A stretch of DNA of 64,000 nt from a virus (IMGVR_UViG_3300032167_000006), one strand, 5' to 3'; numbered from the stretch's first letter, positions 34,616 through 60,350 are shown. Made by a program: numbers and translations. Notes: generated by a model from the letters alone, not told the origin.

Positions 34616-34667
34616 TTAATATCACCTCTTAAAAAATAATAAATCAACCGCAATATAACATTATTGT

Positions 34668-34761
34668 AATATATATGACTGTGGTTGGTTATATGTATTG
34701 CATATTTCTCCTAATACACATTATTATGACAGCATCCCGTAGGGTTAACGCCCTACGGGAT
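34668..34761 (+). ncRNA. Candidate late sRNA with an anti-RBS loop
   Basis: AACA-N6-TA at 34657; stem TGTATTG/TAATACA with loop CATATTTCTCC; terminal hairpin 34734-34761. Confidence 0.45.
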
Positions 34762-34772
34762 AACTGTTCTTT

Positions 34773-35159
34773 TTATCTGAGTATTGTAGTTTCTAAACCA
34801 TTAATAAAAGTTACTCTAATAGTATTTTGTTTGAAGTGATTTTTAAGTTCTTCAGCATGTATAAAAACATTTCGTTTCCATTCATGAATATCTATACCTT
34901 TATCATACTCGGTATAATCAGCTTCTAAAACAAATACTTCTTCTCCGCCATTAGGACATCCCCATATTTGTTTGTAAACGGTTTTAGCAGGTTTAACAAG
35001 CCAAGATATAGAACCATCATTATAATTTTCTTCAAATTCTTGAAGAAATCTACAAAAATTATCAAAAGACATTCCGGAAACTAATTCTCCAGAATGATAA
35101 CCTTCAATTGTTGAAATTGTTACTATAGCTTTTGTATGATTTAATTTATATTCTTCCAT
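34773..35159 (-). CDS. Hypothetical protein
   Basis: Coupled downstream of the RNAP subunit gene. Confidence 0.7.
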   Translation of the reverse strand: MEEYKLNHTKAIVTISTIEGYHSGELVSGMSFDNFCRFLQEFEENYNDGSISWLVKPAKTVYKQIWGCPNGGEEVFVLEADYTEYDKGIDIHEWKRNVFIHAEELKNHFKQNTIRVTFINGLETTILR

Positions 35160-35161
35160 TT

Positions 35162-37357
35162 TTATTTTCCTTCTTTTTCTACAATCTTAACCATTTCTAT
35201 ACCTTTATCAGGATCATTAATTTTAACATCATCGCTAAATAATCCATCTGACATATAGACCTGAGGTTGCTCACAGAAGAATAAATCAAAGAATGATGGT
35301 GCATGCTTAGAATATGACAGCGGATCATAGAGAACTTTACCAAGATTCTTATACAATAATGATACAACAATACTAGGATTATTAACAAGAGCATGGTCAA
35401 GTGTTAATAATTTATATTGTGTATATGGATTATTCCAATTAGGTTTAGCTAATACATTATCGGGTGATACTATCTGATTTGCCAATATTACTTCAAGATG
35501 AACAGCATCTACATCAAGTCCACCATCTATTACCAAATCAATAAGAGTCTGTAAGGCTTCATCTTTAGTCATCTTTTCAGTGACATCAGATTTATTAATA
35601 CAGTTAATAATATCATTCATAGTCTTACTAATCTCATCATTTGATATTTTGATATAGAATAATATATCTTCGGTAAGAGCACTTAAAGGAATAGCTACCT
35701 TACCATCTACAGCAGAAGCTTTATTACGAATTTGCTTATTAAGCTCATTTGAAATATATAAAGAATCATTATCTTGAGTTCCACATTCTATCATTTCACC
35801 AGTAGGTGTTTGTATATAGAATCTGGTAACGTATTCATTATAAACTCCAGAATTTTCATCTATATCAAAAGCTATTTCATTACCATCATCATCATATGAT
35901 ATAGTATCTTCTTCCTCATTAACAAGAAATACATCTTCTGGATCTATAATCATAAAATATTTCTTAAGATCTATGTCATCTAAATCTGTAAGTTTAATAG
36001 CATTAGATTCTACATCAAAGAAATCTTGAAATTGCGGTAACCATTTCATGGCAACAATATGAGTTTCAAGAAGATGTTTTGCTGATAATAGAATCTGTGT
36101 TAATATTGATGATAATATTTCTGCAGCAATCTTACCTACGTTAATATTAATATTGGTGTAGAAAAGATCTCCATAACAGCATTTACAAATACCTGTACCT
36201 GAAGTTCTAGATGCACAAGTCATTGGACTTTTAAGATATATAGTTTGACCTATAAGATGCTTATCTTTTTTATAATCAACAAGATACTGCATACCATTAG
36301 GTTTAAAACGATAATATCTATTTTTAATCATATTAAGATGCTTCTCAGTTTTTACTTCATACTTCATAAAATGCTGAGACATGCATTCATAATTAAAATC
36401 TGGATTCAATATAGTGTCAATATTATTCAGTCCAAGAAGTCTTGCAAAGTCACCAGAATCACCAACGTTATTCTTAGATAGAATCTGAGCTTTTCTAGCT
36501 GTAGATGATTCTATAAAATAATCTGTTGGCGTATTAACGCCACCTGTAGTAAAGCTTCTGTCAATCTTATGATCAAATACCAATCCATCATTAGCTGGTT
36601 TTGTGCCAATATTAAGTCTTGCTTCTTTAAACTGTCTTGGGTTTATAGCTTCAGATGCTTTAAAACTATTAGCAAGCCCATGGTCATAACCCAAATATTG
36701 TCTGCTATTTTTGATTATTTCAATAGCTTTATTTGTTGCTTCCATACCAGCATCCTTAACTTGGTCAAATGGCACATCGGCTAAAGATACATGAAGCAGA
36801 TCTCTATATGCAGGAACTGCCTTCATGAGTGCTATATCATCTTCATTATTAATTGTATTTGCTAAATAATAAGAAAAATGTTCTATATTACTATAGTTCC
36901 ATAATCCATCGCAAATATTATTATTCAGAAATACATTACCATATTTAATCTTATTTTCTTTTGTTAACACATATTCATCGACAAAGTTCTTAATATTTTT
37001 TCTTTTGAGCTCTGGTGACCAGAATATATGCTTAGGTCTTATTTGATTATTGTTTTTAAGCACCATACTCCACATGAATAAACTAAACCAATAATCCACA
37101 ATAAATAATTTGCAAGATATGTTATTCTCCCATGCAATTTCAATCATTAGATTATGTATATAATCCTCATCAATACCATCTTTTAAGATGGCTCCTATAC
37201 CATCAATATGGTCTGCAATGTTCTCTGCTGTTATATCCTTAGGAACATAGATTGAAATACATGTTTCACGATTTTTTATCATATCTGCATAGATATAATA
37301 ATTTTTAAAATTCACCAGATAAGTTTCTGGAATTTGTGTGGTTGTTGTTTGTGACAT
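35162..37357 (-). CDS. Multisubunit RNA polymerase beta'-like subunit, C-terminal piece; probably non-virion RNAP
   Basis: Bridge-helix-like SGDFARLL; zinc site KSPMTC...ICKCCYG; trigger-loop-like GKIAAEILSSILTQILLSAKH; VHLEVI; early-type promoter at 37387. Confidence 0.9.
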   Translation of the reverse strand: MSQTTTTQIPETYLVNFKNYYIYADMIKNRETCISIYVPKDITAENIADHIDGIGAILKDGIDEDYIHNLMIEIAWENNISCKLFIVDYWFSLFMWSMVLKNNNQIRPKHIFWSPELKRKNIKNFVDEYVLTKENKIKYGNVFLNNNICDGLWNYSNIEHFSYYLANTINNEDDIALMKAVPAYRDLLHVSLADVPFDQVKDAGMEATNKAIEIIKNSRQYLGYDHGLANSFKASEAINPRQFKEARLNIGTKPANDGLVFDHKIDRSFTTGGVNTPTDYFIESSTARKAQILSKNNVGDSGDFARLLGLNNIDTILNPDFNYECMSQHFMKYEVKTEKHLNMIKNRYYRFKPNGMQYLVDYKKDKHLIGQTIYLKSPMTCASRTSGTGICKCCYGDLFYTNININVGKIAAEILSSILTQILLSAKHLLETHIVAMKWLPQFQDFFDVESNAIKLTDLDDIDLKKYFMIIDPEDVFLVNEEEDTISYDDDGNEIAFDIDENSGVYNEYVTRFYIQTPTGEMIECGTQDNDSLYISNELNKQIRNKASAVDGKVAIPLSALTEDILFYIKISNDEISKTMNDIINCINKSDVTEKMTKDEALQTLIDLVIDGGLDVDAVHLEVILANQIVSPDNVLAKPNWNNPYTQYKLLTLDHALVNNPSIVVSLLYKNLGKVLYDPLSYSKHAPSFFDLFFCEQPQVYMSDGLFSDDVKINDPDKGIEMVKIVEKEGK

Positions 37358-37386
37358 ATATTTATTCCTCCTTATATTATTATAGA

Positions 37387-37396
37387 TATAATATAC
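37387..37396 (-). promoter_or_regulatory. Early-type promoter GTATATTATA (RNAP beta' C-terminal piece)
   Basis: Same motif about 30 nt before the start codon. Confidence 0.6.
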
Positions 37397-37518
37397 ATTT
37401 AAAAAAGATTTATATCCATATTAATAAAAAGTACTTTTAAGAATAAAATTATAAAATAAATAAACCGTATGGGTTTCCCCATACGGCTATCTATTTATAC
37501 AGAGAGTGAAATATTAAA

Positions 37519-38013
37519 TTAGAAAGTAATCTTGGGAAGTGCAGGCATTTTCTTCATATTCTTAATATGCTGAACCTGAGATTTCTTTGCAACCATTTTT
37601 GCTTTGGTTTCATATTTCTTGAAAATGCGGCTACGAAGATCGCGTTCTCTAACTCTGTTAAGAGCAAGTTTATTAAAGAGAGGATCTTTTGCATTACGAG
37701 CAAGGATTAAGCTTGCTAAGTGAGCACGACGAGTAAAGTCATCATTTTTGTTAAGACGAACAAAAGTCTTTTTACTCATCTTTCTAGCCTCAACAAGAGC
37801 CTGAACTTCTGCAGATTCTACAAATGATTTCTGAGCATTCTCACCGCCATCGAAATATGTAACGCTTTCAAGAGCTGCAGCTTGCATATTTGCATCAACT
37901 TCAGCAGCAATAGCATCCATACCCTCTTCGGTTTCAGGATCTGCAATATTAGCAGCTATATCAATATCGTTAATTGTATTAGCATCGCTTTCTAAAACTT
38001 TTCCAAATAACAT
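37519..38013 (-). CDS. Putative abundant internal virion protein (acidic N-terminus, basic C-terminus)
   Basis: Late promoter; strong RBS; several (V/L/F)-x-E candidate protease sites. Confidence 0.5.
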   Translation of the reverse strand: MLFGKVLESDANTINDIDIAANIADPETEEGMDAIAAEVDANMQAAALESVTYFDGGENAQKSFVESAEVQALVEARKMSKKTFVRLNKNDDFTRRAHLASLILARNAKDPLFNKLALNRVRERDLRSRIFKKYETKAKMVAKKSQVQHIKNMKKMPALPKITF

Positions 38014-38087
38014 GGTATATACCTCCTAAATAGTTTATTTTGTTTAGATCTAAAAAATTAAGTATATTTATAAATGCACTTAAGATT

Positions 38088-38099
38088 TATTAATATGTT
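38088..38099 (-). promoter_or_regulatory. Late promoter AACA-N6-TA
   Basis: AACA TATTAA TA upstream of 37519..38013. Confidence 0.7.
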
Positions 38100-38176
38100 T
38101 ATGATTTTAAATATGGTTAAACTTCCAAATAAAAATATATTATATATTTGTAATATATTGAAAGGAGAAATAAAAA

Positions 38177-40309
38177 ATGTCGCAAGATTTTATGAAGGCT
38201 ATGAGCCTTAAAGCTATTCAAGAATACGAACAAGTAATGGTAGATGGATTAAAACGTTCTTTTCCATTATTAAACGAATGTGAATTAAGAGAAGCAATTC
38301 AATATTCTATTACAAATCGTCTTGAAAACAAACCAGCTTATTTGGAAAATAATTACACAAAAAATAAAATCAATGGCACAGTTTTAGATATAATAAACTA
38401 TATCCAAAAACTAGAACCTATAATGACATCAAGCGGTGTTTTATTTAAGAAGCACAAAGAAGCAGATAATCCACTTGCAAAAATGATTATGGGTTTTATC
38501 GAACAACGTGGAATTTATAAGAAGGAAATGTTTAAGCATCCTAAAGGAACTGAAATGTTTGAACGATATAATCTCTTTCAGTTACTTGAAAAACTTAATG
38601 CGAATGCAACCTATGGTGTATTGGGTGCCCCTACGTCGTTGTATTACAATATCTATGTAGCTGAAGCAATTACCAGGCAAGGACGTTCATATATCAGTTG
38701 TTCTATTATGTTATTTGAATCACTATTAGCTAACAATATTAAATTTAATAACCTTAATGAAATAATAACTTTCATTAATAATGTGGAACATGAAAAACCT
38801 AATAGAAAACTTATTGATAGTTATATTTTAGATAGAAATATAACTCTTGAAGAATGTTTCTTTAAAGTAATGAATACTGTTGATATGATGATATGGGTTC
38901 CATCTGAAGATGAAATGGCAAGAGTATGGGAATACTTAAGAGGATTATCTCAAGAAGATATAAATCGTATTTATTATAAAAATAATTTATATACTTTTGT
39001 AGATTTACCAATAGTAACTGATCTTATTATTAAAATACTTTGTGAAATTGATGACCCATTTATGGATCCCAATAAACCACCAAAGAATATTAAAGAAGAT
39101 CTTGATACTTTAGTATCAATGGTTAAAGAATATGTATATTACCCACATTTCTATATTGATAAATTAGATAGATTGGAATATATGCAGAGAGATATAGTTG
39201 CTATAAGTGATACTGACTCAACCATTATATCATTTGATGCATGGTATAGATTTATTCTTGATAAAGTTTATAATATAGATATGCCTGTAAAGCATCAGAA
39301 ACGTGATATGGTAGAAGTAATCAAAGCAGATGAATGGGGAGATAAGCCATTAAGAGAAATGGTCACTTATGTAGAACCAAGATATGATTATAATTTCTAT
39401 ACTGATGAGGTTATTGAATTAGATCGACTTGTTGAACCATGCGTATTAGTCCCTCAAGATAATCTTAGATATGCTATTATAAATATTATTGCTTATATAT
39501 GTAGTGATCTTGTTGTGGATTATCTTGCAGAATATACAAAACTCTCTGGTAGTTATGTCGAAGGTACTAAATGTCGCATGATTATGAAAAATGAATTCTT
39601 ATTCCAACGTGTTATGCTTACTGAGAGTCGTCGAAATTATGCAGATATACAGAATCTTCAAGAGGGTAATATTATTCCTAAAGGTATTAAAAGCCAGTTA
39701 GCAATAATGGGTTTACCTATGAATAAAACTACATTATCAGACGACGTTAGAAAAAGATTACAGCAAATTTTATATGAAGATGTGTTAACTGCAGATAAGG
39801 TTGATCAAGTTAATGTAATGAAAAAGCTTATAATATTTGAAAAAGAAATTTATAATAGTATTATGAATAAAGAAACCAAGTATTATAAACCTGATAATAT
39901 AGCAGCTATAAATAGTTATAATAAAGATCCATTGTCTGTAAATGGTATTCTTGCAGCTACTATTTATAATGAGATGCGCAATGAAGATATGCCTGCTATT
40001 AATCTTGAAGAACGTAATAAGATTACTAAAATTAAGATTGACGTTAATAAAAAGAATGTAGATAAAATCAAAGATACTTATCCAGAAGAACATGCTAAAT
40101 TAGTTAGACTTCTAAATCATCCAATACTTGGAGCTAAAGTTACAGTTATAGGATTACCACCTGATGTCGCTGTTCCAGATTGGGTGTTGAGTTTCGTTGA
40201 CTTTACTACAATTATTAACGATCAGCTTAAGAACTTCCCTCTTGATAGTATTGGGCTTAAGAGATTGAATAATGATTCGGTTAACGTATCTAATATAATT
40301 CAATTATAA
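38177..40309 (+). CDS. Family B DNA polymerase, C-terminal piece (motifs B and C)
   Basis: LLEKLNANATYG (motif B) and ISDTDS (motif C); no exonuclease domain or motif A. Confidence 0.88.
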   Translation: MSQDFMKAMSLKAIQEYEQVMVDGLKRSFPLLNECELREAIQYSITNRLENKPAYLENNYTKNKINGTVLDIINYIQKLEPIMTSSGVLFKKHKEADNPLAKMIMGFIEQRGIYKKEMFKHPKGTEMFERYNLFQLLEKLNANATYGVLGAPTSLYYNIYVAEAITRQGRSYISCSIMLFESLLANNIKFNNLNEIITFINNVEHEKPNRKLIDSYILDRNITLEECFFKVMNTVDMMIWVPSEDEMARVWEYLRGLSQEDINRIYYKNNLYTFVDLPIVTDLIIKILCEIDDPFMDPNKPPKNIKEDLDTLVSMVKEYVYYPHFYIDKLDRLEYMQRDIVAISDTDSTIISFDAWYRFILDKVYNIDMPVKHQKRDMVEVIKADEWGDKPLREMVTYVEPRYDYNFYTDEVIELDRLVEPCVLVPQDNLRYAIINIIAYICSDLVVDYLAEYTKLSGSYVEGTKCRMIMKNEFLFQRVMLTESRRNYADIQNLQEGNIIPKGIKSQLAIMGLPMNKTTLSDDVRKRLQQILYEDVLTADKVDQVNVMKKLIIFEKEIYNSIMNKETKYYKPDNIAAINSYNKDPLSVNGILAATIYNEMRNEDMPAINLEERNKITKIKIDVNKKNVDKIKDTYPEEHAKLVRLLNHPILGAKVTVIGLPPDVAVPDWVLSFVDFTTIINDQLKNFPLDSIGLKRLNNDSVNVSNIIQL

Positions 40310-40310
40310 A

Positions 40311-40336
40311 ATAGAGAGGGAGAAATCCCTCTCTAT
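40311..40336 (+). terminator. Hairpin after the polymerase C-terminal piece
   Basis: ATAGAGAGGGA GAAA TCCCTCTCTAT. Confidence 0.75.
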
Positions 40337-40359
40337 AAATTTATTAAGGAGAAATTATA

Positions 40360-40857
40360 ATGAAATTAGCAGTAAGTTATTTTTATCAAATTAGATTTTT
40401 TAAACCTTATATGATACCTATATCCACTGCAGTATGGGATCCTAAATGGTATCATGCAAATAAAGATCAAAAATATATTTTTAAAGATAAAAATGGAGTT
40501 ATTAATGGCGTAAGATCCGCCATGCTAATGCCAGGAGAAACATGCAAAGATTTATGTCGTGGTCCTGGAATGTGTTTTTGTAAAACCGGAATAGTTGATC
40601 CTAATAATTGTGATTTTCTTAAAGCATATACGAATCAATTAAATAGTATAGATTTTAATATATTTATGAATAACTTAGAAGAAATGTGTAATAAAGTTAA
40701 AAATGTATTAAACTTTTATGAAGAGCCTATTGTCGTGTTCATTGTGCATGAATCATGTGATAATATATGTAGCGAAAGAATTCCAATTATAAATGTATTT
40801 AGAAATAAAGGATATGAAATTGATGAATTGAAATATCCTATAAAAGAAAATTATTAA
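40360..40857 (+). CDS. Hypothetical protein, DUF488-like
   Basis: N-terminal SYF..I...PIST..W.P.WY and late VFIVHE...CSER pattern. Confidence 0.45.
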   Translation: MKLAVSYFYQIRFFKPYMIPISTAVWDPKWYHANKDQKYIFKDKNGVINGVRSAMLMPGETCKDLCRGPGMCFCKTGIVDPNNCDFLKAYTNQLNSIDFNIFMNNLEEMCNKVKNVLNFYEEPIVVFIVHESCDNICSERIPIINVFRNKGYEIDELKYPIKENY

Positions 40858-40872
40858 AAGGAGAATATTAAA

Positions 40873-41076
40873 ATGAGTATTGAAGAAATTATTGAAGCAA
40901 GGGTAGAAGAGATTATAGAAAAATATAGAAACGGATTTCAGTTAAATGGAAACGCTATGTCTGAACGAGATGAAGTATTTTTAAGAAATGGTATTGCTAA
41001 TGGTATAGTTATTGCCGGATTAGCATTAACTAATACTAATTGCGATAATATATTAAATCCAAATAAAAATAAATAA
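40873..41076 (+). CDS. Small hypothetical protein
   Basis: AAGGAG RBS; terminator follows. Confidence 0.65.
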   Translation: MSIEEIIEARVEEIIEKYRNGFQLNGNAMSERDEVFLRNGIANGIVIAGLALTNTNCDNILNPNKNK

Positions 41077-41083
41077 TTAAATT

Positions 41084-41125
41084 AATACCATAGGGAGAAA
41101 TCCCTATGGTATTTTTATTTTTTTT
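41084..41125 (+). terminator. Intrinsic terminator with T-tract
   Basis: AATACCATAGGGA GAAA TCCCTATGGTATT followed by TTTATTTTTTTT. Confidence 0.85.
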
Positions 41126-41129
41126 AATT

Positions 41130-41139
41130 ATATATTATA
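41130..41139 (+). promoter_or_regulatory. Early-type promoter ATATATTATA (Trp-repeat operon)
   Basis: Same motif directly after a terminator. Confidence 0.6.
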
Positions 41140-41199
41140 ATAGTGATAGTAAATGAGGTCGATATTGCTATTAATAAAATTTATAGGAGAATAAATATT

Positions 41200-42666
41200 A
41201 TGAACTTTAAAAACGCCGAGAATAAACGCAATGCTAAAAAAGAGGCTGAAAAATACGCCAGAGATATAGCTAACACAGTGTATTGGAATAGAATATTAAA
41301 TATATTCGATGATTTTTTAATAGATGAAGAGCATATTAATTACTTATATGGATTAAATATTGATACTTTTAATAGATTAACTATGAAGTTTACATTATCC
41401 GAATATGTAATTAGAACATTTAAAAATAGTATAGACTGGCAGTGCATTTTAACATATCAAAAGTTATCTGAAGATTTCATACGAGAAATGAAAGACCACA
41501 TTGATAACTGGTATTTTGTATCAAGATATCAAAAATTATCTGAAGATTTTATTAGAGAATTTCAAGATAAAGTTTGCTGGGATACAATATTTCAATTCCA
41601 AGATTTATCAGAGAAATTTATAGAAGAATTTGAAGATAAAATTGATAACTGGTATTTTGTATCAAGATATCAAAAATTATCAGATAATTTTATTGAAAAA
41701 TTTCATGACAAAGTCAATTGGGATTATATACTAAAGTATCAAAATGTATCAAAAGTATTAGTTAAAAAATATAAAGAAGAATATTATTTTGATTATATTA
41801 ATATGATTGGAGATATATCTAAAAATGATATAATACAATACCAAGATAAAATTAATTGGAATTTGCATTATATATATAAAAATATGTCTATAGATCTTAT
41901 TAGAGAATTTAAAGATAAAATTAATTGGGATTTGGTATGCGAAAATTGTGATCTATCAATAGATTTACTTAGAGAATTTAAAGATTATCTTGATTGGACC
42001 AGCGTATTATGCAATGTAGATGTATCTTTAGATTTTATTAGAGAATTTAAAGATTATGTCGACTGGGAATATATGACTTCTGAATTTGAATTGTATGATA
42101 GTTTTATCAGAGAATTTAGAAATTATGTCGATTGGGATGATATATCTGGATGCTATACTCTTACTGAAGATTTTATTAGAGAATTTCAAGATAAGGTTAA
42201 TTGGCATTTAATATCGGAATACCAAAAATTATCTGAAGATTTCATTAAAGAATTTCAAAATAAAATAGATTGGTGTTGTATATCGGAGCATCAGAAGTTA
42301 TCTGAAGAATTTATAACTAAATTTAAATATAAAGTCGATTGGAAAAAAATATCTCAATATCAGGTATTATCTAAAGATTTTATTATTAAATTTAAAAGTT
42401 TTGTGTATTGGGAAAACATTCAAAAATATCAAGATGCATATAAATCCTGTAGTGGTGTTTATAAAAGATACAAAACAAAATACGAAAAACTTAAACGTCA
42501 AAAATCTTGGGATGAGGAATCTTTAGTTTATCGTAATAATGGATGTTCATGTTATAATTCCGCATATGGATTAATTGCCGAACGTGATGAAGATTTAGAA
42601 TCTATTAAATACATATTAAATTCAAACCGCTATAACACATGGGAAAATATATTAAAGGAGAAATGA
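41200..42666 (+). CDS. Tryptophan-repeat protein 1; likely start MNFKN at 41200
   Basis: More than 12 copies of an ~23-aa unit W..IS.YQKLSEDFIREFQDK(V/I)(N/D). Confidence 0.85.
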   Translation: MNFKNAENKRNAKKEAEKYARDIANTVYWNRILNIFDDFLIDEEHINYLYGLNIDTFNRLTMKFTLSEYVIRTFKNSIDWQCILTYQKLSEDFIREMKDHIDNWYFVSRYQKLSEDFIREFQDKVCWDTIFQFQDLSEKFIEEFEDKIDNWYFVSRYQKLSDNFIEKFHDKVNWDYILKYQNVSKVLVKKYKEEYYFDYINMIGDISKNDIIQYQDKINWNLHYIYKNMSIDLIREFKDKINWDLVCENCDLSIDLLREFKDYLDWTSVLCNVDVSLDFIREFKDYVDWEYMTSEFELYDSFIREFRNYVDWDDISGCYTLTEDFIREFQDKVNWHLISEYQKLSEDFIKEFQNKIDWCCISEHQKLSEEFITKFKYKVDWKKISQYQVLSKDFIIKFKSFVYWENIQKYQDAYKSCSGVYKRYKTKYEKLKRQKSWDEESLVYRNNGCSCYNSAYGLIAERDEDLESIKYILNSNRYNTWENILKEK

Positions 42667-42670
42667 TAAA

Positions 42671-43120
42671 ATGCTAATAGCAAATGATACTGACAGATGG
42701 GATTTTGAAAAATCCGAAAAATTTATTAAAGATAATTTACAACAAGGTGATGAAGATGTAATATATTCACAGGCAGAATATTTAAAAGTGACAGAAGATT
42801 TTGCTAGAGAATTTAAAGATAAACTAGAAATAGAATTATTTTGTATCTGCGCCGAGTTATCAGAGGATTTCTTACGTGAATTTAAAGATGAATTCGACTG
42901 TGTGGATTGGATCAATATATCTTATTTACAAGAACTATCAGAAGATTTTATTCGTGAATTTCAAGATAAAGTTAATTGGACCGGCATAACAATGTGTCAG
43001 GATATATCTGAAGATTTCATACGTGAATTTCAGGATAAAATAGATTGGGATGCTATGCCAGTTGATAAATTATCTTATGAATTACTTGATGAATTTGAAG
43101 ACAAATTTGATTTGGGTTGA
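42671..43120 (+). CDS. Tryptophan-repeat protein 2
   Basis: Same LSEDFIREFQDK..W unit, about 5 copies. Confidence 0.85.
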   Translation: MLIANDTDRWDFEKSEKFIKDNLQQGDEDVIYSQAEYLKVTEDFAREFKDKLEIELFCICAELSEDFLREFKDEFDCVDWINISYLQELSEDFIREFQDKVNWTGITMCQDISEDFIREFQDKIDWDAMPVDKLSYELLDEFEDKFDLG

Positions 43121-43134
43121 TTGAGGTTTTATAA

Positions 43135-44881: not shown

Positions 44882-44893
44882 AACATTACAATA
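44882..44893 (+). promoter_or_regulatory. Late promoter AACA-N6-TA (terminase)
   Basis: AACA TTACAA TA. Confidence 0.75.
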
Positions 44894-48208: not shown

Positions 48209-49246
48209 ATGAACGAAGAAATTAAAAATGAAGAAGTAAATACAACTCTTACAGATGAACAGGTTCACCATATTTATACTGAATTATCTGATGTAGATAA
48301 AGAAAGTATGGATAATTTAGCAGCTGCTAAAAAAGAAACAGAGGAAACTGTTTATACATCAGAGGATAATACTGAAATAACTGAAGAATTTATATCTGGA
48401 GTTACTATATCTGAAGTTGAAGACATTAAAGAAAATGAAGAAGATGTAAAAGATGCTCTTAGTGGATATGATTTAGATAATGAATCTATGATGCAAATGC
48501 TAAATCTTATCAATGATTATAAAGCCGGTAAACAAACTAATTTATATTCTAAATTACCTGAATCTTTTAAGAAACTTGTTGATAATATGGTAGCAAGTGA
48601 AAATGTACCTAAAAATCAAAAAGTAGCAATGAGAAATGAAGCAGCTAAAATACTTATAGATAGCTTTATTAATGATGCTAAAATGTCAGCCACTATAGAT
48701 GAATTTTCCGCAGAATTAAACACTGCCATATGTGAAATGAATTCAGAATATGATAAAATGATTTCAGATGCAATGGATGAAACATTTAGCAAAATAGAAG
48801 AAATCAGAGCAGAAGATCCAGAACAAGCTGAAAAATTGGAATCGATTAAAAATGCATTTGATAATGCTTTAACATTTGACAAACAGCTTGAATGGATTAA
48901 AATGATGCCAGCAAATGCTCTTAAAAAACTAGCAGATAAAGAGTACAGTAATTACGTTAGACAATTCAACACAAGAGTAAATAACAATACTTTTGGAGTT
49001 ACAATTCCCGATGTTAGTGAACTTCTTCCTATAATTAAAGCTGCTTTTGATGGTAAATATAGTGGTAATACTATTAAAAAGTTTATATTAGCAATATGCA
49101 GAACTTCTGCTAATCCTAATGATCTTGCTGGTACTGCATATAATTATAGAATAGTTTCTAGTATTTACAGATATAAGTTTACAGCAATAGACGAGAAAGG
49201 TGAAATTATCTTTAGGAATATCTCCAAGGTTATTGAAGAAATCTAG
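48209..49246 (+). CDS. Hypothetical acidic helical protein
   Basis: AAGGAG RBS; same operon. Confidence 0.7.
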   Translation: MNEEIKNEEVNTTLTDEQVHHIYTELSDVDKESMDNLAAAKKETEETVYTSEDNTEITEEFISGVTISEVEDIKENEEDVKDALSGYDLDNESMMQMLNLINDYKAGKQTNLYSKLPESFKKLVDNMVASENVPKNQKVAMRNEAAKILIDSFINDAKMSATIDEFSAELNTAICEMNSEYDKMISDAMDETFSKIEEIRAEDPEQAEKLESIKNAFDNALTFDKQLEWIKMMPANALKKLADKEYSNYVRQFNTRVNNNTFGVTIPDVSELLPIIKAAFDGKYSGNTIKKFILAICRTSANPNDLAGTAYNYRIVSSIYRYKFTAIDEKGEIIFRNISKVIEEI

Positions 49247-50102: not shown

Positions 50103-50105
50103 ATA

Positions 50106-50135
50106 TAACCCATAGGGATCACTCCCTATGGGTTA
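50106..50135. terminator. Hairpin terminator
   Basis: TAACCCATAGGGA TCAC TCCCTATGGGTTA. Confidence 0.8.
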
Positions 50136-50889: not shown

Positions 50890-50900
50890 CGGCTTTTATA

Positions 50901-50912
50901 AACATATCAGTA
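50901..50912 (+). promoter_or_regulatory. Late promoter AACA-N6-TA (sheath-tube)
   Basis: AACA TATCAG TA. Confidence 0.8.
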
Positions 50913-50974
50913 AAGCTAACGCTTTAGTTTATTTATAAATAAATTAAAAACAACTATAAGGAGGTAATACCAAT

Positions 50975-52873: not shown

Positions 52874-52887
52874 GGAGGTGAACGAAT

Positions 52888-53850
52888 ATGGCTATTAAAA
52901 GAGATTGGACAGTAACAAACCCTGCAAATGCGAATGTTATGGATCAGAATAAGAAAGTAAGTTCATTATTTGAAAATACTAAAGATTTTAAAGATGTGAC
53001 TACTTATCGTCTTATGAGAGGTGTTCCGGACTTTGGCTCTCTCGTTCAGTTTAATCCTTATGAAACTGGTTATGCTGCATTCATTATTTGTCAGATTCCT
53101 AAATTCATGGAGAAATTGGCATCTAAGGATGCAAACTATAATAAGTTAGTTAATAACTGGGCTCATATTATCGAATATGAATTCAAGAGCTTTGATGGTC
53201 TTGATAACCTTTCTGCAGATACTATTACTCTTGGCGATGAGTTAAATAGCATTAACGTAATTTCTAGAATTAATGGTATGAATGCTGCAGAGTTTACTCT
53301 TGGTTATGAAGAGAAATCTGGTAGTCCTCTTACAAAGTTTGCTAAATTATATCTTACTGGTATTAAGGATCCTCGTACTCAGGTTAAAACTTACCATGGT
53401 TTAATTCACTCTGGTGAGATGGAGCCTGGTTTCGAAAACGAAGTATTTACATTCCTCTTTATCAATACAGATAACACAATGCGTAAAGTTGAAGCTGCAT
53501 ACCTTCTCTTAGGTTGTCAGTTAAACTCTGCTGACCTTGATATGTATAACTACACCAAGGGTGATATCGGTAAGAGAGATGTTAACGTTAAGTTTAGTGG
53601 ATATCCTGTACAGTCTACTAAGATTGATAAAGCTGCTCAGGCTATGTTAGATTATCTTCTTAGCGCTGAAGCTGGAGCTCGTCAGATTATCGTTAATAGC
53701 GATGAATACAATTACACCGGTATTAATGAAATTGGCAAGACTCTTGATAGATACGCTGGTACTGGCAGAGCTAAAGATCTTGGTATCGAAGTAACTGGCA
53801 CAGAGTATGATGTTGCAACATACACTGGTGTTGAAGCTATTACTGAGTAA
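52888..53850 (+). CDS. Tail tube protein
   Basis: Directly after the sheath gene; strong codon bias; beta-rich; terminator follows. Confidence 0.75.
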   Translation: MAIKRDWTVTNPANANVMDQNKKVSSLFENTKDFKDVTTYRLMRGVPDFGSLVQFNPYETGYAAFIICQIPKFMEKLASKDANYNKLVNNWAHIIEYEFKSFDGLDNLSADTITLGDELNSINVISRINGMNAAEFTLGYEEKSGSPLTKFAKLYLTGIKDPRTQVKTYHGLIHSGEMEPGFENEVFTFLFINTDNTMRKVEAAYLLLGCQLNSADLDMYNYTKGDIGKRDVNVKFSGYPVQSTKIDKAAQAMLDYLLSAEAGARQIIVNSDEYNYTGINEIGKTLDRYAGTGRAKDLGIEVTGTEYDVATYTGVEAITE

Positions 53851-53873
53851 TTTACTAAAATTATATAAATTAT

Positions 53874-53899
53874 TCCCCATGGGAGCAATCCCATGGGGA
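53874..53899. terminator. Bidirectional hairpin between tube and portal genes
   Basis: TCCCCATGGGA GCAA TCCCATGGGGA. Confidence 0.8.
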
Positions 53900-53909
53900 T
53901 ATATTTTCT

Positions 53910-56303
53910 TTAAGCTAGATTCTCAGGATTAGATATTGTATCTTCAGTGGCACCTTGTTTTGCTTTATTTATAATTTGTTTGATAACATCCATATTTAAG
54001 TATGATCCTAAGTGATAGATTTTAAGTTCTTTTGCAAACTTAGCTTTAATCACTTCATTAGGCTCGTCAGCCATTATAATATTAGTAACGTTTTCACAAT
54101 AATCACTAGTATTAGTAATAAGCTGACCTGAGTTAATCATATTCATAAATAACGGAGGAGGTAATGTTACAGTTATCTGATCATTACAACCATATTCAAT
54201 ATCATAAATCTTAGTATATAACGGAGCTATTACTTTTTGGAACTCTCCTTGACGGCTATAAGTAAATCTTAAAAATTTAGAGTTAGCCATAGTAAGCTGC
54301 ATTGCATAGTCTGGAGATAAACGTGCTTGGATTATTTCCATTGGCACACCAGTAACGCTAATAGCAGACTCTTCAAGAAGATTAAGCAAATCAGTTTTAA
54401 TTTCAATTTGCTGACCCTGAATAACTTCAACATCAATCGGAGACTGACCATCATTGCCACGGGGGATGATATAGTCGTTAAATCTACCAGTAATATTAAG
54501 AACTGAATTAATATTTTCAATCTGTCTGATACCAAAATTGGATTTCTTAATTTCATTAATTGTTTTTAATAAAGTTTTAGAAATATTAGATTCAACAGAT
54601 TGTTTTACATAATAAACACGCTTATCGTTACCGCGTGTCATAACACCTAAACAGTTAGTAATATAAATAGCAACCCATAATTTAGCAGGAATTAAACTAA
54701 GATTAAGATCACTAATACCTCTACCAGTATCTTCATCAAGGTCAAAATAAATATGATGAATATCTTCAGGTGGAATATAACTAACACGAATATTATTAGT
54801 AGAACCAGCAGCGGCATTAAATGAATCATTATATTTAAGGATATAATAAATCTCTTTTTTAAGATCCTGATTGGCATTGATAAACTTAGCATCAATTTTA
54901 TCTGCCAAGTTATTGGCAATGCTTCTTAATAGTTCTTCTCTTCTTTGTATAGAATCAAATGCTTCTGATCTACCATTACTTCTTAAACCAGTAATAGTAT
55001 TAACCATTCCAGTTGTTGTATGTCTTTCTTCAAATAATGCTGCTTGATCATCAAAATCAAAATAGTAATATCCTAAACAAATATCATTAAGAATTATAGG
55101 AGTTACTCTTTCACGCTTAAGAATTTTAACTATACAGCCATTCATGTCTTTAATGTTAGAATTTCCTTTATTGGAAGTATAGAGTCCGTCAGCTGTCGTA
55201 TCATCCTCGTTAGGGAGCTGTAAATCATCATCGAGCACTCGATCAAATTTATGGTGTGCAGGAATTTTTGCCCCCATTTCAAGATCATGATTCATTGAAT
55301 TGTCAAATGCATATGGTTTACCATCATTAGCAATTGAATCAATTCCTTCTGTAATAACATCAGAACTGCCATTAATAGCTAATTCCATTAAGTATTGCTC
55401 TGTAAGAGATTGCTCTCTTACTACTTTTCTTTGTTCTCTAGCAGACTTTTCATTTTCAACAATAGAAGAAATTATTCCATTTTCTATTTTAATATCAAAA
55501 TTAAAATTATCTTCTGTTTCGTTAAGCTTATAATCATTAGAAGATGAAACCTTTACAGGTTCAAATTCAGATATACCACTTTCAATAAGTACTTCTCCAG
55601 ATTCAAAATTTGTTCTAACTTTAATATTTCTATCATCTGTAGTGGAATTTTTTCTATCTATAAGTTTTCTTATAGCTTTACTATACGGAACGCAGTATAC
55701 AAAAGTTTCGCCATATTTAGAAGTCTTTTCATAAATCTCACTTGTTAACTTAAGCATATTATAACGATTTTTCATATCGTTAATATTTCTTGCAAACTGT
55801 TCCTCAGATTCTCTAGTTGGTGACAATTTAGATTCTATATTAAGAAAATCTTTTGAAAAGCTATCTGATGCTAATATATTATCTCTAATTGTATCTAGAG
55901 CTTCTTGAAGTTTAGGCATATATCTTAATACCTCATCAATTTCAGTATCAACAGCCTTAATCCATCTATTGTCTAAATATGAACTTGTTAAATTATTAAT
56001 AAATTCATTATCACCAAATATACGTTCAAACTCTTTTACAGTATCTGGATCTCCCTGAGAACTTAAAAGAAGTCGTTCATATAATCTAGATATATTAGGC
56101 TCGCCAATATTATCAGAGTTAACATTCATTATATCTTTAATAGATGTAGTTATATCTGTTTTTATAGCCTGTAATTGATCTTTATTATGCGGGTCTGCAA
56201 AATATGTTGTGCGGTACATATCATCCATATTACCTTGAACAAGGGTAGCTAATCTACGCAATACACCTGTACGAGGTTTCTGTTCATTTTGTTGTGAAGG
56301 CAT
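53910..56303 (-). CDS. Portal protein
   Basis: P.LQEALDTIRDNI, KYGETFVY, TRGNDKRVYYV, DYIIPR and IEVIQGQ-like segments recall T4 gp20-type portals; late promoter. Confidence 0.8.
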   Translation of the reverse strand: MPSQQNEQKPRTGVLRRLATLVQGNMDDMYRTTYFADPHNKDQLQAIKTDITTSIKDIMNVNSDNIGEPNISRLYERLLLSSQGDPDTVKEFERIFGDNEFINNLTSSYLDNRWIKAVDTEIDEVLRYMPKLQEALDTIRDNILASDSFSKDFLNIESKLSPTRESEEQFARNINDMKNRYNMLKLTSEIYEKTSKYGETFVYCVPYSKAIRKLIDRKNSTTDDRNIKVRTNFESGEVLIESGISEFEPVKVSSSNDYKLNETEDNFNFDIKIENGIISSIVENEKSAREQRKVVREQSLTEQYLMELAINGSSDVITEGIDSIANDGKPYAFDNSMNHDLEMGAKIPAHHKFDRVLDDDLQLPNEDDTTADGLYTSNKGNSNIKDMNGCIVKILKRERVTPIILNDICLGYYYFDFDDQAALFEERHTTTGMVNTITGLRSNGRSEAFDSIQRREELLRSIANNLADKIDAKFINANQDLKKEIYYILKYNDSFNAAAGSTNNIRVSYIPPEDIHHIYFDLDEDTGRGISDLNLSLIPAKLWVAIYITNCLGVMTRGNDKRVYYVKQSVESNISKTLLKTINEIKKSNFGIRQIENINSVLNITGRFNDYIIPRGNDGQSPIDVEVIQGQQIEIKTDLLNLLEESAISVTGVPMEIIQARLSPDYAMQLTMANSKFLRFTYSRQGEFQKVIAPLYTKIYDIEYGCNDQITVTLPPPLFMNMINSGQLITNTSDYCENVTNIIMADEPNEVIKAKFAKELKIYHLGSYLNMDVIKQIINKAKQGATEDTISNPENLA

Positions 56304-56328
56304 AATAACACACTCCTTTCTTATAATT

Positions 56329-56340
56329 TATTCTCATGTT
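56329..56340 (-). promoter_or_regulatory. Late promoter AACA-N6-TA (portal)
   Basis: AACA TGAGAA TA. Confidence 0.75.
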
Positions 56341-56390
56341 CGCCATTGGCTAAAATACCTAGGTTGTGGGTAATATACCCACAACCGTAT

Positions 56391-57011
56391 TTATTGTACT
56401 TTTATAAAATTTATATAAGTTATTATATTAAATTTCTTTTTACTAATACGAAATCTTGAAATAAATGTATGAATCAAGTCAGGTTGAAATATTTGTAAGT
56501 ATAATTTATCACTTTTTGTAGTTGGTAATATTGATGAGAATAAAGTCATATAATAACCTTCATAAATTACACTAGCAGCACCATCTGCTTTGCTCATACT
56601 TTGAATTTTACTTAAAATTTCAGGTATTTCAACTTCATTAATGGCTATTTGAGTTGTATTATCAATTGATATGGCATATTTATATTTATTATAAGCAAAA
56701 GATATTATTCTTTGATCAAGACCAATTAATAATTCTCCCCCACCAACTGTTCTAAGAGTTGTATCTATAGAATCAAATTCAAAATCTGATTCTATAGATA
56801 TAGTTTTAATAAATGCAGATAATGAACGCTGATTAATTATAATACCATTAAAATAATTATTTATGAAATTGCTATCTAACAAGACATAAGTTACTATATA
56901 TTGAATATTATCAAGTCCAATTATAGCATTATCAATAAGAACAAAATCTTTTTGTTTTAAAGCTTTAGCAGCTTCATTAATATATACTAATTCACTGGTT
57001 GTTATATTCAA
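56391..57011 (-). CDS. Hypothetical protein coupled to the DNA polymerase N-terminal piece
   Basis: Overlaps the polymerase stop codon. Confidence 0.6.
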   Translation of the reverse strand: MNITTSELVYINEAAKALKQKDFVLIDNAIIGLDNIQYIVTYVLLDSNFINNYFNGIIINQRSLSAFIKTISIESDFEFDSIDTTLRTVGGGELLIGLDQRIISFAYNKYKYAISIDNTTQIAINEVEIPEILSKIQSMSKADGAASVIYEGYYMTLFSSILPTTKSDKLYLQIFQPDLIHTFISRFRISKKKFNIITYINFIKVQ

Positions 57012-58905
57012 ATTTACTCATCCTTTCTTGCTTATAGCACATTTCTCTACCAACAGAATTATCCACAATTATACACATTTCTCTCTTATTTTTATTAGGA
57101 ACTATAGTACACATAATTCTACCACCATTAATAGTATCACTTGAATATAATCCTCTCATTGGAGCTTTAATGGTTGAAAAATATTTTATTATATCATAAT
57201 ACATATCCAAATAGCCTGCAAGATTAAGATATCTTTGACAAAAATTAAGTCTATCATGAGATATGAAATCTTCCATAAACCATACTGTTCTATCATAATA
57301 TGGATTATTAAATCTATTCTCCTTAGGATCAAGAACTTCAGGGAAGAATACTTTACCATGCTGTGTCATCGGGCTCATATTAGATTCATCAATTATAGAC
57401 GGATACAGACTCTTATAGTCAAAGTCATCCAGATTATCACATAACATTGTCGGACGACCATCTATTTTAACTCTAGGTTTCTCACTTACTAAAGTCGGAT
57501 CGGCTACAAATGCACCTGCAAATCCAACTTTTTCATTGCTCTTATTAGTATTGCATCCAAGAATATAACCCATATTTCTAAAATCTTTAACACCACGATT
57601 AACAAGATAAGTTGTCTGTCTATGAACTTTAGAATATCTTGTATTTGTAGTCATAGCTTTAGAATATACAAAGTCTATATCATTAACTTTATTTTCTATA
57701 CATAACTGAACAATTGTATCCATAATATTATAGAAAACAAAAGTTCTATAATCTAGATAAGGAAGTTTAGATATATTAGTTGTAATATTAGAATAATCAA
57801 GTTTCTTAACACCTGCTATTAATCCACCAACATAATCAAGTTTAAATGATGCTATTGCTCTTTGACCTTTACGACGAGATGCAAATGTAACTAATTGATC
57901 TATATATACAGAATATGAAGATACTTGAGCATAATCTCCACGTTCTTCAAACTTATCAGCCCTCTTATCAACGTAATAATAACATTCTTTAACCTTGAAA
58001 TCTTTATGACAAATAATTTCACATGGATCATATCCAAGATTAATAATTCTTTGAATAAGATACGGTAAGTCGAATGGCATGTTCCATGCTATTGAAAAAT
58101 CTGGTTTAATTATATTGATTACATTAAATGCATCAGTTAATAATTTTATTTCTTCATCATAAAACATGATTTTATATTCAAATGGATCAAGACCTAAACG
58201 ATGTTCTTGTTTCCAACCACCAACTGTATCTTGAACAAATTGCTTTATTTTTATAGGTATATCTTTTTCCGTTTTAAATAAATCAATTAATGGATTATTG
58301 TAATTATCTAAAAGTAAAGTATATACCTTTTTATTAATATCATCAACTAATGTTATGGCGTTTACAGGACATTCTCCAGGTTCAGGAAAATCTCCTCTCA
58401 TATCAATAGTATCAGCCTCGATATCGAAGTACAATTTAGTGGGTTTAAACTGTTCATTTTTATATAATAAATCAAATCTATATCTATAAAAATCTTCAAT
58501 ATGCATATCAGCACCAAATATAGAAGGTATCTGAAATAACTTATCATTATCTCTAGCATTTCCTGTACGAAGATTATCATAAAAGAACTCAAGATTACCA
58601 GTTCTCTCAGCTATATCTTTTTTCAAATCATTATATTTACAAGTAACTTGATAAACATCTTTTTCTTCAATACATAATTTATTATAATCTACAGGTACAC
58701 CTTCATTTGTCATCCAATAAGTATATTCTGGTTCGGAAATATGTTGGACTTTCTTTTCCATAGTATCCATATCTTTATAAATTATATCTATACTATCTTT
58801 TCCATATTTTCCAGTCTCAATATCTTTTTTAGGTTTATGATATATTATATTTAATAGAGATATATTAGCACCTATGGGATAACCTTTAATAAATGATTTA
58901 TCCAT
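56992..58905 (-). CDS. Family B DNA polymerase, N-terminal piece (3'-5' exonuclease plus motif A)
   Basis: ExoI YFDIEAD, ExoII AWNMPFDLPY, KLDYV, ExoIII YNIMDT; motif A DFDYKSLYPSII. Confidence 0.92.
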   Translation of the reverse strand: MDKSFIKGYPIGANISLLNIIYHKPKKDIETGKYGKDSIDIIYKDMDTMEKKVQHISEPEYTYWMTNEGVPVDYNKLCIEEKDVYQVTCKYNDLKKDIAERTGNLEFFYDNLRTGNARDNDKLFQIPSIFGADMHIEDFYRYRFDLLYKNEQFKPTKLYFDIEADTIDMRGDFPEPGECPVNAITLVDDINKKVYTLLLDNYNNPLIDLFKTEKDIPIKIKQFVQDTVGGWKQEHRLGLDPFEYKIMFYDEEIKLLTDAFNVINIIKPDFSIAWNMPFDLPYLIQRIINLGYDPCEIICHKDFKVKECYYYVDKRADKFEERGDYAQVSSYSVYIDQLVTFASRRKGQRAIASFKLDYVGGLIAGVKKLDYSNITTNISKLPYLDYRTFVFYNIMDTIVQLCIENKVNDIDFVYSKAMTTNTRYSKVHRQTTYLVNRGVKDFRNMGYILGCNTNKSNEKVGFAGAFVADPTLVSEKPRVKIDGRPTMLCDNLDDFDYKSLYPSIIDESNMSPMTQHGKVFFPEVLDPKENRFNNPYYDRTVWFMEDFISHDRLNFCQRYLNLAGYLDMYYDIIKYFSTIKAPMRGLYSSDTINGGRIMCTIVPNKNKREMCIIVDNSVGREMCYKQERMSKFEYNNQ

Positions 58906-58993
58906 AATTTTACCTCCTAATTTACATTATTTCATTGTACTAGACTTTGTTTAATCGTATAAACCGACGTATTTTGGCAATTAACATAACTAT

Positions 58994-59200
58994 AATGATT
59001 AGGCATAACACCCCATAAAACCAAATCATTTTTATATATCTTCTTGCCAGATTTGTGTGTTGTGTGTAGTTTTTCGTTTTTGTAACTTTGCTCGTAAAAG
59101 GCATAGTGAAAACTCCTTTTTATCATAAATTTCCTCTTAAAATTTTAGCATATATACCGTACTCGTGCTGTGGGGTGGCACGAGTATATTTTGTGCTTTT
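58994..59200 (+). ncRNA. Candidate late sRNA with two anti-RBS segments
   Basis: AACA-N6-TA at 58983; CATAGTGAAAACTCCTT and CATAAATTTCCTCTT; hairpin 59160-59186 followed by a T-rich tail. Confidence 0.45.
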
Positions 59201-59247
59201 TTATTTCACAAACAAAAAAGTAAAATCTTAAAGGAGGTTCTTTAACT

Positions 59248-60174
59248 ATGTCTTTTAATATTAATAAATTTGTTAAAGATTCTAACGAATATTCAAATCA
59301 CGATCTCAAACAAGAAGTTGCTGTAGTTGTTGAAACAGTAGACGAAACAAAAAAGAAAAAAAGCAAAAAAAGTGATTCTACAGAAATTGTTAAATCGCAA
59401 TCAAACTCTACAATTGTACCTGCTACTAGTATGAGCTATATTCAAGAAAACATACCATATGCTGGTGCGTATGTTGAAACCAATCAACAGCTTGATGAAA
59501 CTATAGCTCAATTAAATATGCTTGGTGCTGAAATAGTTACCGAATTGAATATGGTTCGTAGCAATAAAACTCTTCGTAACAAATATAGTATTGTTAATGA
59601 AATGACTCAAACTGCTACATCTATTTTAGGTACCAAACTTTCAGCTATTAAAGAAAAGAATTCAACAATTAATAGTATCAATAAACTTGAACTTGATAGA
59701 CTTAAACAAGTTAAAGTTTCTGCATCAGAAGAAGATGATAACGCTAGAATTGCAAATCTTTATGATGCATTTATCAATACACCTATTGGCGCTGGTCCTG
59801 GAATTCTTGGTCCATCAATGCAAGATATTATGGCTGGAGGACAAACAGGTCCATCTGTTCCTATGATGTCTCTTGGTAGCGATCAGCAAATGTGGGAAGC
59901 TGGATTAAATCCTGCAGAAAATAGAATGTTACTTGAAGCAAAAGGCGCAATTGAAACTGTTGTAATGTATGATTCTACAACTGGAAATCGTTGGTTTGAA
60001 GTAGTTGATAAAATTACCCGCCAACCAGTTCCAAATGTAGAAAAACCAGATAGCTCTTATATATATGATCTTGATATTAATGTGAGAGGTGGATTTGCTA
60101 AAGACGGTAATAGATCAGTAACATATCCTCTCATCTGTATTAATGGTGGAGATACCAGTATAACAGAATATTAA
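59248..60174 (+). CDS. Conserved hypothetical late protein with coiled coil
   Basis: AAGGAGG RBS; AACA-N6-TA at 59211. Confidence 0.7.
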   Translation: MSFNINKFVKDSNEYSNHDLKQEVAVVVETVDETKKKKSKKSDSTEIVKSQSNSTIVPATSMSYIQENIPYAGAYVETNQQLDETIAQLNMLGAEIVTELNMVRSNKTLRNKYSIVNEMTQTATSILGTKLSAIKEKNSTINSINKLELDRLKQVKVSASEEDDNARIANLYDAFINTPIGAGPGILGPSMQDIMAGGQTGPSVPMMSLGSDQQMWEAGLNPAENRMLLEAKGAIETVVMYDSTTGNRWFEVVDKITRQPVPNVEKPDSSYIYDLDINVRGGFAKDGNRSVTYPLICINGGDTSITEY

Positions 60175-60187
60175 TTAACATATTTAT

Positions 60188-60350
60188 AAATCACGTAGTG
60201 GTTTCATAGTTTTGTTTCCTTTCTTTATTCTAGATTCTATGAATAGACATTATCATAGAATATAGAATACAAAATCAACACAAGAAATATTTTTGTCATT
60301 TTACACTCTCCTTAAATAGACGCCCGTAGGGTTGGTCCCTACGGGTGCCT
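60188..60350 (+). ncRNA. Candidate late sRNA with two anti-RBS segments
   Basis: AACA-N6-TA at 60177; CATAGTTTTGTTTCCTTTC and CATTTTACACTCTCCTT; internal hairpin; terminal hairpin 60318-60350. Confidence 0.5.

Follow-up and report, generated by a model that had tools for sequence, protein, structure and literature searches.

The window analysed here is a 64,000-nucleotide (nt) stretch of the viral sequence IMGVR_UViG_3300032167_000006. The contig to which it belongs is 82.6 kb long and derives from an uncultured jumbo phage of AR9/PBS1 type, a relative of Bacillus phage AR9. The window carries genes for a split multisubunit RNA polymerase (RNAP) subunit, a split family-B DNA polymerase, a terminase, and virion proteins. 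Three of its intergenic gaps contain an AACA-N6-TAA motif on the + strand (34657-34669, 58983-58995, and 60177-60189), proposed in a first-pass annotation of the sequence as late promoters of a family of small RNAs without open reading frames (ORFs). The three motifs are exact and, as had been claimed, no same-strand gene starts within 150 nt of any of them; a 308-amino-acid (aa) gene begins 252 nt past 58995, with its own canonical motif at 59211. The strong hairpins described behind the motifs lie at 34734-34761, 59159-59187, and 60321-60347, and the predicted RNAs are ~105 nt (unit 1), ~200 nt (unit 2), and ~165 nt (unit 3) long. The announced CAT-N-pyrimidine elements were found on the + strand of all three stretches: CAT 34701-34703 with CTCC 34708-34711 in unit 1; CAT 59102-59104 with ACTCC 59112-59116 and CAT 59124-59126 with CCTC 59133-59136 in unit 2; and CAT 60297-60299 with CTCTCC 60306-60311 in unit 3. 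The term family is apt for this common architecture and does not extend to sequence homology. Positional conservation, a 5' hairpin at the predicted +1, + strand-specific G·U pairs, and covarying + strand terminators support the assignment of these sites as genuine AR9-type late promoters, predicted to drive short, ORF-less, structured + strand RNAs.

Promoter motifs in the window

In AR9, early promoters read AAATATATATTAT-N6-G and late promoters AACA-N6-T-A/G, with the last base as the transcription start (PMC5312081). The consensus at the three orphan sites is identical to this late AACA-N6-TA/G form, and the early-type TATATTAT-N6-G is found 5' of many window genes. The split multisubunit RNAP homologue expected for AR9-type late transcription is present as a 731-aa protein, which matches phrog_3015 and the AR9 beta' gene (128225-129679; 27% identity). 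AACA-N6-TAA occurs 17 times in the whole window against 27 expected; 12 of these 17 precede a same-strand gene by 9-90 nt and give the extended consensus AACA-N5-R-TAA-A, which marks the motif as a genuine promoter signal in this phage. The genes served include those for the terminase (motif at 44882) and a virion protein (56340).

A scan for promoter plus terminator against background, as the first-pass annotation had suggested, covered 268 kb comprising this phage and non-redundant related loci. Motifs without a following gene but with a + strand terminator were found 12 times, against 0-3 times for 11 permuted, composition-matched decoy motifs; the loci being homologous and the events therefore not independent, the test controls composition, not shared descent. 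The terminators show the G+C-rich stem and U-run of intrinsic + strand terminators, with covariation in unit 2 and an imperfect U-run in unit 1. Conservation in relatives, also raised in that annotation, was borne out for unit 2 (13 of 13 lineages), was restricted to two lineages for unit 1, and was poor for unit 3 (three close relatives).

Unit 2, beside the DNA polymerase gene

Unit 2 lies between the divergent genes for the DNA polymerase and the 308-aa protein. Relatives (denoted by L numbers) were fetched via the latter gene, giving 8 viral and 26 metagenomic loci; 13 distinct lineages, 49-83% identical in the 308-aa protein, share the divergent arrangement. The late promoter AACATAACTATAA (58983-58995, +) has its predicted +1 at A58994. 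All 13 diverged relatives have AACA-N6-TA on the + strand (0.9 expected), at a distance of 50-110 nt from the polymerase start, and 0 of 13 have it on the minus strand. The gap is mostly unalignable between relatives, with four exceptions: a block just past the start, the element CAU-N5-10-(U)CUCC(U), the strong hairpin, and the canonical late promoter of the 308-aa gene (59211-59223, +; ATG at 59248), which is conserved in the relatives aligned.

The predicted RNA, 125-221 nt long in relatives, opens with a 5' hairpin at +1 (58994-59030, +) that is weak in the window and stronger in relatives. Its foot lies 0-3 nt from +1 in 11 of the 13 lineages, with differing stem sequences (position test, combined p = 0.002). 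Two tandem anti-ribosome-site segments follow (59100-59138, +), CAU-N8-CUCCUUU and CAU-N6-UCCUCUU, predicted unpaired at 0.57-0.98. The intrinsic terminator (59159-59202, +) consists of hairpin 59159-59187 and a T-run. Compensatory double changes were observed at 9 of its 11 pairs; its U·G pairs are valid only on the + strand, being C-A mismatches on the other, and in relatives the T-rich tails are likewise on the + strand. A + strand terminator without a + strand gene upstream points to a + transcript starting inside the gap. We are highly confident that unit 2 is a real RNA gene.

Read on the opposite strand, the unit 2 box is a full ribosome site, with a Shine-Dalgarno (SD) sequence, a 5-10-nt spacer of free sequence, ATG, and an A-run, and it is kept in 12 of the 13 lineages. 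The ORFs behind it are unrelated, span 1-64 codons, and mostly encode 1-14 aa. The first-pass annotation, which had described the minus-strand products as mostly trivial peptides, overlooked minus-strand ORFs of 64 aa (58932-59126) and 54 aa (58940-59104, containing MIWFYGVLCLIIIVMLIA) in this gap and, in the third, a hydrophobic ORF of 20 aa preceded by a good SD. The 64-aa and 54-aa ORFs were rejected as probably not genes, since they are unconserved even in the closest relative, L013, which has 11 aa there and no start for the longer ORF.

Other promoters surround the unit. Only L020, L022, and L028 have a perfect early promoter on the minus strand upstream of the mini-ORF; in L017 and L018 an early promoter lies downstream of it, and none was seen in the window. 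In L017 the early and late elements overlap at unit 2, as they do in unit 1. As a separate observation, TATAATATATAAT adjoins the SD of the 308-aa homologue in L020, L021, L022, and L028, and in those scanned (L020, L022, and L028) the complementary strand reads as a perfect early promoter, TATATTAT-N6-G/A, directed through the hairpin toward the polymerase gene. Diverging from unit 2, a late-like variant, TACA-N6-TAA (58927-58939, -), precedes the polymerase ATG by 21 nt. Of the 13 relatives, 11 have YACA-N6-TAA, and in nine of these it precedes the start used by 19-28 nt; the element resembles a conserved late-type promoter with a non-consensus first base (Y) that would serve a replication gene.

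The 308-aa protein (59248-60174, +) is late and conserved (29-83% identity) beside the polymerase gene in all relatives, and in this phage its gene has an ORF-less unit on each side (units 2 and 3). It matched no Pfam, PHROG, or Atlas family, and nucleotide and protein searches of a phage collection with the 308-aa region for cultured relatives gave no matches.

Unit 1

The late promoter of unit 1, AACATTATTGTAA (34657-34669, +; predicted +1 at A34668), is found at the same place in the relatives L009/L039 and L010/L045. A 14-base-pair (bp) 5'-terminal hairpin with four G·U pairs (34668-34699, +) opens exactly at +1, and its predicted fold is far more stable on the + strand (-11.1 kcal/mol) than on the minus strand (-0.5). 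L039 has a 5' hairpin of other sequence and the same design, again opening exactly at +1 (-12.3 on the + strand against -1.8), followed by CCUCC at the equivalent linker place (unpaired 0.99) and a terminator; L045 follows the same plan. In the window, the single-stranded linker (34700-34727, +) is 28 nt long and contains CAU 34701-34703 and UCUCC 34707-34711, unpaired at 0.92-0.97. The terminator (34728-34776, +), an extended stem around hairpin 34734-34761 with a U-rich tail, also lies behind a minus-strand 128-aa gene; its U-run begins ~8 nt past the core stem and is to that extent imperfect. The whole RNA from A34668 folds at -37.5 kcal/mol (z = -5.5).

On the minus strand, an AR9-type early promoter, TATATTAC-N6-G (34659-34673, start G34659), serves the 104-aa and helicase genes and overlaps the unit 1 promoter back to back; it has one mismatch to the TATATTAT-N6-G consensus. 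We consider that the + strand RNA and this early promoter probably coexist. The description of the first gap as ORF-less had missed a + strand 54-aa ORF (34675-34839). We rejected it as a candidate gene: no SD precedes it, its start falls within the 5' hairpin, its frame continues across the terminator, and L039 has three codons there. Unit 1 is very probably a real RNA gene.

Unit 3

The late promoter AACATATTTATAA (60177-60189, +; predicted +1 at A60188) follows the stop of the 308-aa gene at a distance of 2 nt. The RNA opens at +1 with a short 5' hairpin (60188-60204, +), which folds at -3.2 on the + strand against -0.4 on the minus strand, and the relative L014 has a 9-bp hairpin from +2. 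The element CAU-N6-CUCUCC (60297-60311, +) is predicted unpaired at 0.97-0.99; L014 retains ACUCCC, without CAU. The terminator (60321-60347, +) is terminator-like on both strands and shared with a convergent SbcC-like gene. The hydrophobic 20-aa ORF MTKIFLVLILYSIFYDNVYS (60237-60299, -), behind AAGGAG-N7-ATG, is fully antisense to unit 3 and absent in L014. Being kept only in three close relatives, unit 3 is the weakest of the three, and we lean only slightly towards its being a real RNA gene.

Analogous transcription starts in AR9

Two late starts mapped in AR9 by differential RNA sequencing give RNAs of similar design. The start 75478(-), entered as 'g090, antisense', has the highest step height (3757) among the late starts examined in Table S3, and 115851(+), entered as 'g142, antisense', has a height of 278; as listed by Lavysh et al. 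(2017), both are given only as antisense RNAs, with no function assigned there (PMC5312081). The first lies in the g090-g091 gap and produces AAUGUCCUCCUG..., followed by a 16-bp hairpin and a U-rich tail, without an ORF. The second is also intergenic and ORF-less; its leader of 46 nt contains CCCCUC and leads into a terminator. Both resemble the window units in the AACA-N6-TA promoter, the intergenic ORF-less RNA, the exposed CCUCC or CCCCUC box, and the strong hairpin with a U-run; the initial AAUG is also shared with units 1 and 2 of relatives. They differ in that the box lies in an unstructured 5' leader without a 5' hairpin, and they are neither syntenic with nor homologous in sequence to the window units. 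These two mapped starts indicate that units of such design are transcribed in a model phage, one of them very strongly.

It was further observed that among orphan units 1 and 2, both here and in relatives, and at AR9 75478, a start with AAUG (TAATG) is far more frequent than at gene-proximal late promoters (TAAA). This start places an AUG at +2/+3, and the ORFs behind it are unrelated and 3-23 codons long.

Three further AR9 comparisons were set aside. Synteny of unit 1 with g089-g090 was ruled out, the neighbouring RNAP gene being a gp154-like beta' homologue and not g089. No counterpart of unit 2 was apparent: upstream of the AR9 polymerase there is a gene on the same strand, the polymerase has an early promoter, and no late antisense start is among the table entries examined. 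The 'secondary' late leader of g075 is CU-rich and has no clear structure. Separately, the early leader of the AR9 polymerase (110130-110190; L063 1680-1740) starts AGAAAGGAAG-N7-GTG-ATT-TAG, placing an SD-like box and a two-codon ORF ~12 nt past the early start; this element is possibly a 5' stabiliser.

The CU-rich box and its candidate targets

All 20 RNAs examined are predicted to expose the CU-rich anti-SD box (unpaired probability 0.5-0.99), which thus has the unpaired, pyrimidine-rich form of a trans-acting anti-SD small RNA. An Rfam search for a curated RNA family gave no match near threshold. The anti-AUG is kept only beside the polymerase gene, in unit 2; units 1 and 3 keep the CU box and not the anti-AUG. 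Because the anti-AUG is unconserved there, trans action or a non-RNA role is possible for units 1 and 3 and for the AR9 RNAs. At 58983, the anti-SD/anti-AUG also reads as a conserved opposite-strand ribosome site, so cis-antisense action is there equally possible to the silencing of early or host mRNAs that the first-pass annotation had proposed. Such silencing gains no support from target prediction, in which the candidates ranked no higher than expected by chance.

Proposed function and alternative explanations

The RNA genes as a whole are probably real. With modest confidence, we propose that the three sites are late units read by the phage's AR9-type non-virion RNAP, each giving a short non-coding RNA that pairs with ribosome-binding regions. 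From the motifs, folds, conservation, strand bias, and AR9 analogues, we infer that the units are transcribed in this phage. The non-virion RNAP would transcribe each unit late; the hairpin at or next to the first base would probably protect the 5' end; the single-stranded CU-rich box (UCUCC, CUCCU, or CCUC) would mirror the SD, and the intrinsic terminator would end the RNA. Most likely, the exposed box would pair with purine-rich ribosome-binding regions and block ribosome access late in infection. Unit 2 mirrors a whole opposite-strand ribosome site (SD, spacer, AUG, and A-run) and would probably act in cis on longer early transcripts directed toward the polymerase gene; our preferred reading of this unit is a late cis-antisense RNA masking the leader ribosome site of early polymerase transcripts. 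Units 1 and 3 may act in trans. A broader proposal, which we regard as unlikely, sees in these units a class of highly abundant small RNAs produced late by AR9-like jumbo phages. Carrying a copy of the 16S anti-SD core and, next to the polymerase gene, the mirror image of a whole ribosome-binding site, they would compete generally for SD-led start regions and reprogram late ribosome loading with no single target.

Several observations weigh against this interpretation. By count alone, the three orphan motifs are within chance, in agreement with the caveat in the first-pass annotation: 2.8 motifs are expected in shuffled versions of the 40 intergenic gaps (4717 nt; P(≥3) = 0.52), and 1.4 for the stricter R-TAA form (P = 0.18). 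The unit 1 motif is the exact complement of the minus-strand early promoter TATATTAC-N6-G, a point that annotation had overlooked; an early promoter with T at -1 and TT at +2/+3 necessarily reads AACA-N6-TAA on the opposite strand. Unit 1 is kept in only 2 of ~12 distinct helicase-bearing relatives, and the late motif of unit 3 lies within ~30 nt of the 308-aa stop only in L014, L015, and L026, most relatives having behind that gene a ~40-nt gap that holds just a terminator. For unit 2, a conserved SD-spacer-ATG with a free spacer is the pattern that ribosome recognition on the minus strand would select. When targets were ranked over the start regions of ~90 phage genes, none stood out (best z about -2.4 to -3). 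Cognate pairing was marginally better than non-cognate pairing when tested on the 308-aa gene (p = 0.037) and no better on the polymerase (p = 0.17), and early and late gene start regions paired equally well (p = 0.18-0.6). A generic late-made anti-SD would also hit the phage's own late mRNAs.

The + strand RNAs could be real and their products irrelevant, which we regard as rather unlikely. The sites would then work by promoter occlusion or transcriptional interference, with late promoters back to back with early or polymerase promoters or firing into convergent terminators, or they would be a distal promoter with an attenuating leader (unit 2) and a 3'-untranslated-region promoter (unit 3) of the 308-aa gene; the CU boxes would be the mere complement of functional minus-strand SDs. 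The arrangement fits: late and early elements overlap within 34657-34673 at unit 1 and likewise in L017 at unit 2, unit 2 diverges from the conserved YACA-N6-TAA polymerase promoter 45-60 nt away, and units 2 and 3 lie upstream of and directly behind the 308-aa gene. There is also precedent in phage 201phi2-1, where 8 of 11 small RNAs are prematurely terminated 5' untranslated regions (PMC11512511), and the lack of a specific pairing target agrees with it. However, occlusion requires no 5' hairpin, exposed linker, or efficient terminator, yet all of these are conserved; the 308-aa gene retains its own canonical promoter past the terminator, and the AR9 analogues are abundant, discrete RNAs. 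The late RNA might alternatively be the antitoxin-like partner of a type I toxin-antitoxin-like pair in unit 3, and in unit 2 of this phage, repressing a small hydrophobic minus-strand peptide. A strong SD (AAGGAG-N7-ATG) does precede the hydrophobic MTKIFLVLILYSIFYDNVYS, the 54-aa ORF has a membrane-like segment, and the + RNA spans both ORFs fully. Against this, neither ORF is present in the closest relatives, in most lineages the mini-ORFs of unit 2 are 1-14 aa long, the 20-aa ORF has no counterpart in L014, and no promoter for the peptide mRNAs is evident, which makes this explanation highly improbable.

Finally, there may be no functional + RNA at all. Everything would then belong to the minus strand: the hairpins would be 5' stem-loops or terminators of the minus-strand genes upstream, the AACA motifs would have arisen by chance or as complements of early starts, and the SD and ATG would be real sites of mini-ORFs or 5' stabilisers in the helicase and polymerase leaders. 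Bacillus 5' mRNA stabilisers such as the cryIIIA STAB-SD and the SP82 polypurine element offer a parallel: in these, a hairpin in a long leader is followed by an SD-like sequence that may or may not have a mini-ORF, and the same layout is seen in unit 2, when read on the minus strand, and in the leader of the AR9 polymerase. Such elements differ in needing a place near the minus-strand 5' end, and only a minority of the relatives, namely L020, L022, and L028 with their perfect early promoters, has a promoter that would fit; most lineages show none upstream of the mini-ORF. The retained SD-N5-10-ATG of unit 2, with its free spacer and unconserved 1-64-aa ORFs, has ribosome-site spacing without a conserved peptide, as a stabiliser would, and AR9 has AAAGGAAG-N7-GTG and its two-codon ORF just past the early start; the complementarity of the unit 1 motif and the chance-level motif count point the same way. 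Units 1 and 3, however, do not conserve such an SD and start, keeping the CU box but not the anti-AUG. The unit 2 motif is on the + strand in every one of the 13 lineages, and the minus reading of the same bases fits the early consensus poorly. The T-runs and U·G pairs of the unit 2 terminator require the + strand, as do the 5' hairpins of unit 1 with their dependence on G·U pairs, and at unit 2 there is no upstream minus-strand gene for the hairpin to terminate. We therefore judge the absence of a functional + RNA unlikely.

Comparison with known systems

The Firmicute small RNAs RsaE/RoxS and RNAIII carry an unpaired pyrimidine-rich box, complementary to the SD, between stem-loops and a terminator, and the window RNAs share this layout. 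Unlike them, the window RNAs are phage-encoded, have no Rfam match, and would be read by a phage RNAP. Their box (UCUCC/CCUCC) is a copy of the 16S anti-SD core, whereas those families have CCCC/UCCC, and no conserved specific target was found for the window RNAs.

In the jumbo Pseudomonas phages 201phi2-1 and phiKZ, ORF-less start-to-terminator 'sRNAs' of unknown function have been described, some intergenic, some prematurely terminated 5' untranslated regions, and one conserved in position across genera (PMC11512511). The window units resemble these as short ORF-less transcription units in jumbo phages with their own RNAPs. The Pseudomonas phages belong to another lineage with TATG-type promoters, and no anti-SD box is reported for their units, which were found by long-read transcriptomics, whereas the window units are deduced from sequence. 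No description of anti-SD small RNAs in jumbo phages was found in the papers searched.

Regulation in giant phages with their own multisubunit RNAPs has been studied almost wholly at the level of transcription. If the units are expressed, AR9-like phages, AR9 included, would reserve a late promoter that is among their strongest for a small RNA in which the sole conserved single-stranded feature mirrors ribosome-binding sites, and a post-transcriptional layer would be added to the early-to-late switch. The AR9 analogue is already in published data, filed as 'antisense'. Likewise, if expressed, conserved 'empty' gaps in metagenomic jumbo-phage genomes would be RNA genes.

Additional features of the window

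A consensus late motif, AACACAAGAGTAAA (48968-48980, +), lies within the gene 48209-49246, 282 nt before the next gene, and is a possible internal late promoter; 13 internal late promoter sites are reported for AR9 (PMC5312081). At 22229-22251, a perfect early motif, TATATTAT-N6-G, on the + strand (start 22244) overlaps a bona fide minus-strand late promoter at 22241, a second case, besides unit 1, of early and late signals on the same bases of opposite strands. A transfer RNA gene (66.6 bits) occupies 63700-63772 (-), with more structured sequence past the window end.

Terminator hairpins at 30492-30515, 34734-34761, 50109-50132, 60321-60347, and in many other gaps share the stem words CCCGTAGGG...CCCTACGGG (10 near-matches against 0.9 expected), and genome-wide they have the common apex GGGAGAAATCCC in mRNA sense, which suggests a phage-specific terminator design or a recognised element. 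Directly adjoining a terminator hairpin, AACAGAATAATA (30518-30529, -) overlaps the stop codon of the gene 30520-31254; this could be a minimal unit producing only a ~40-nt hairpin RNA with UUUCUCCC at its apex.

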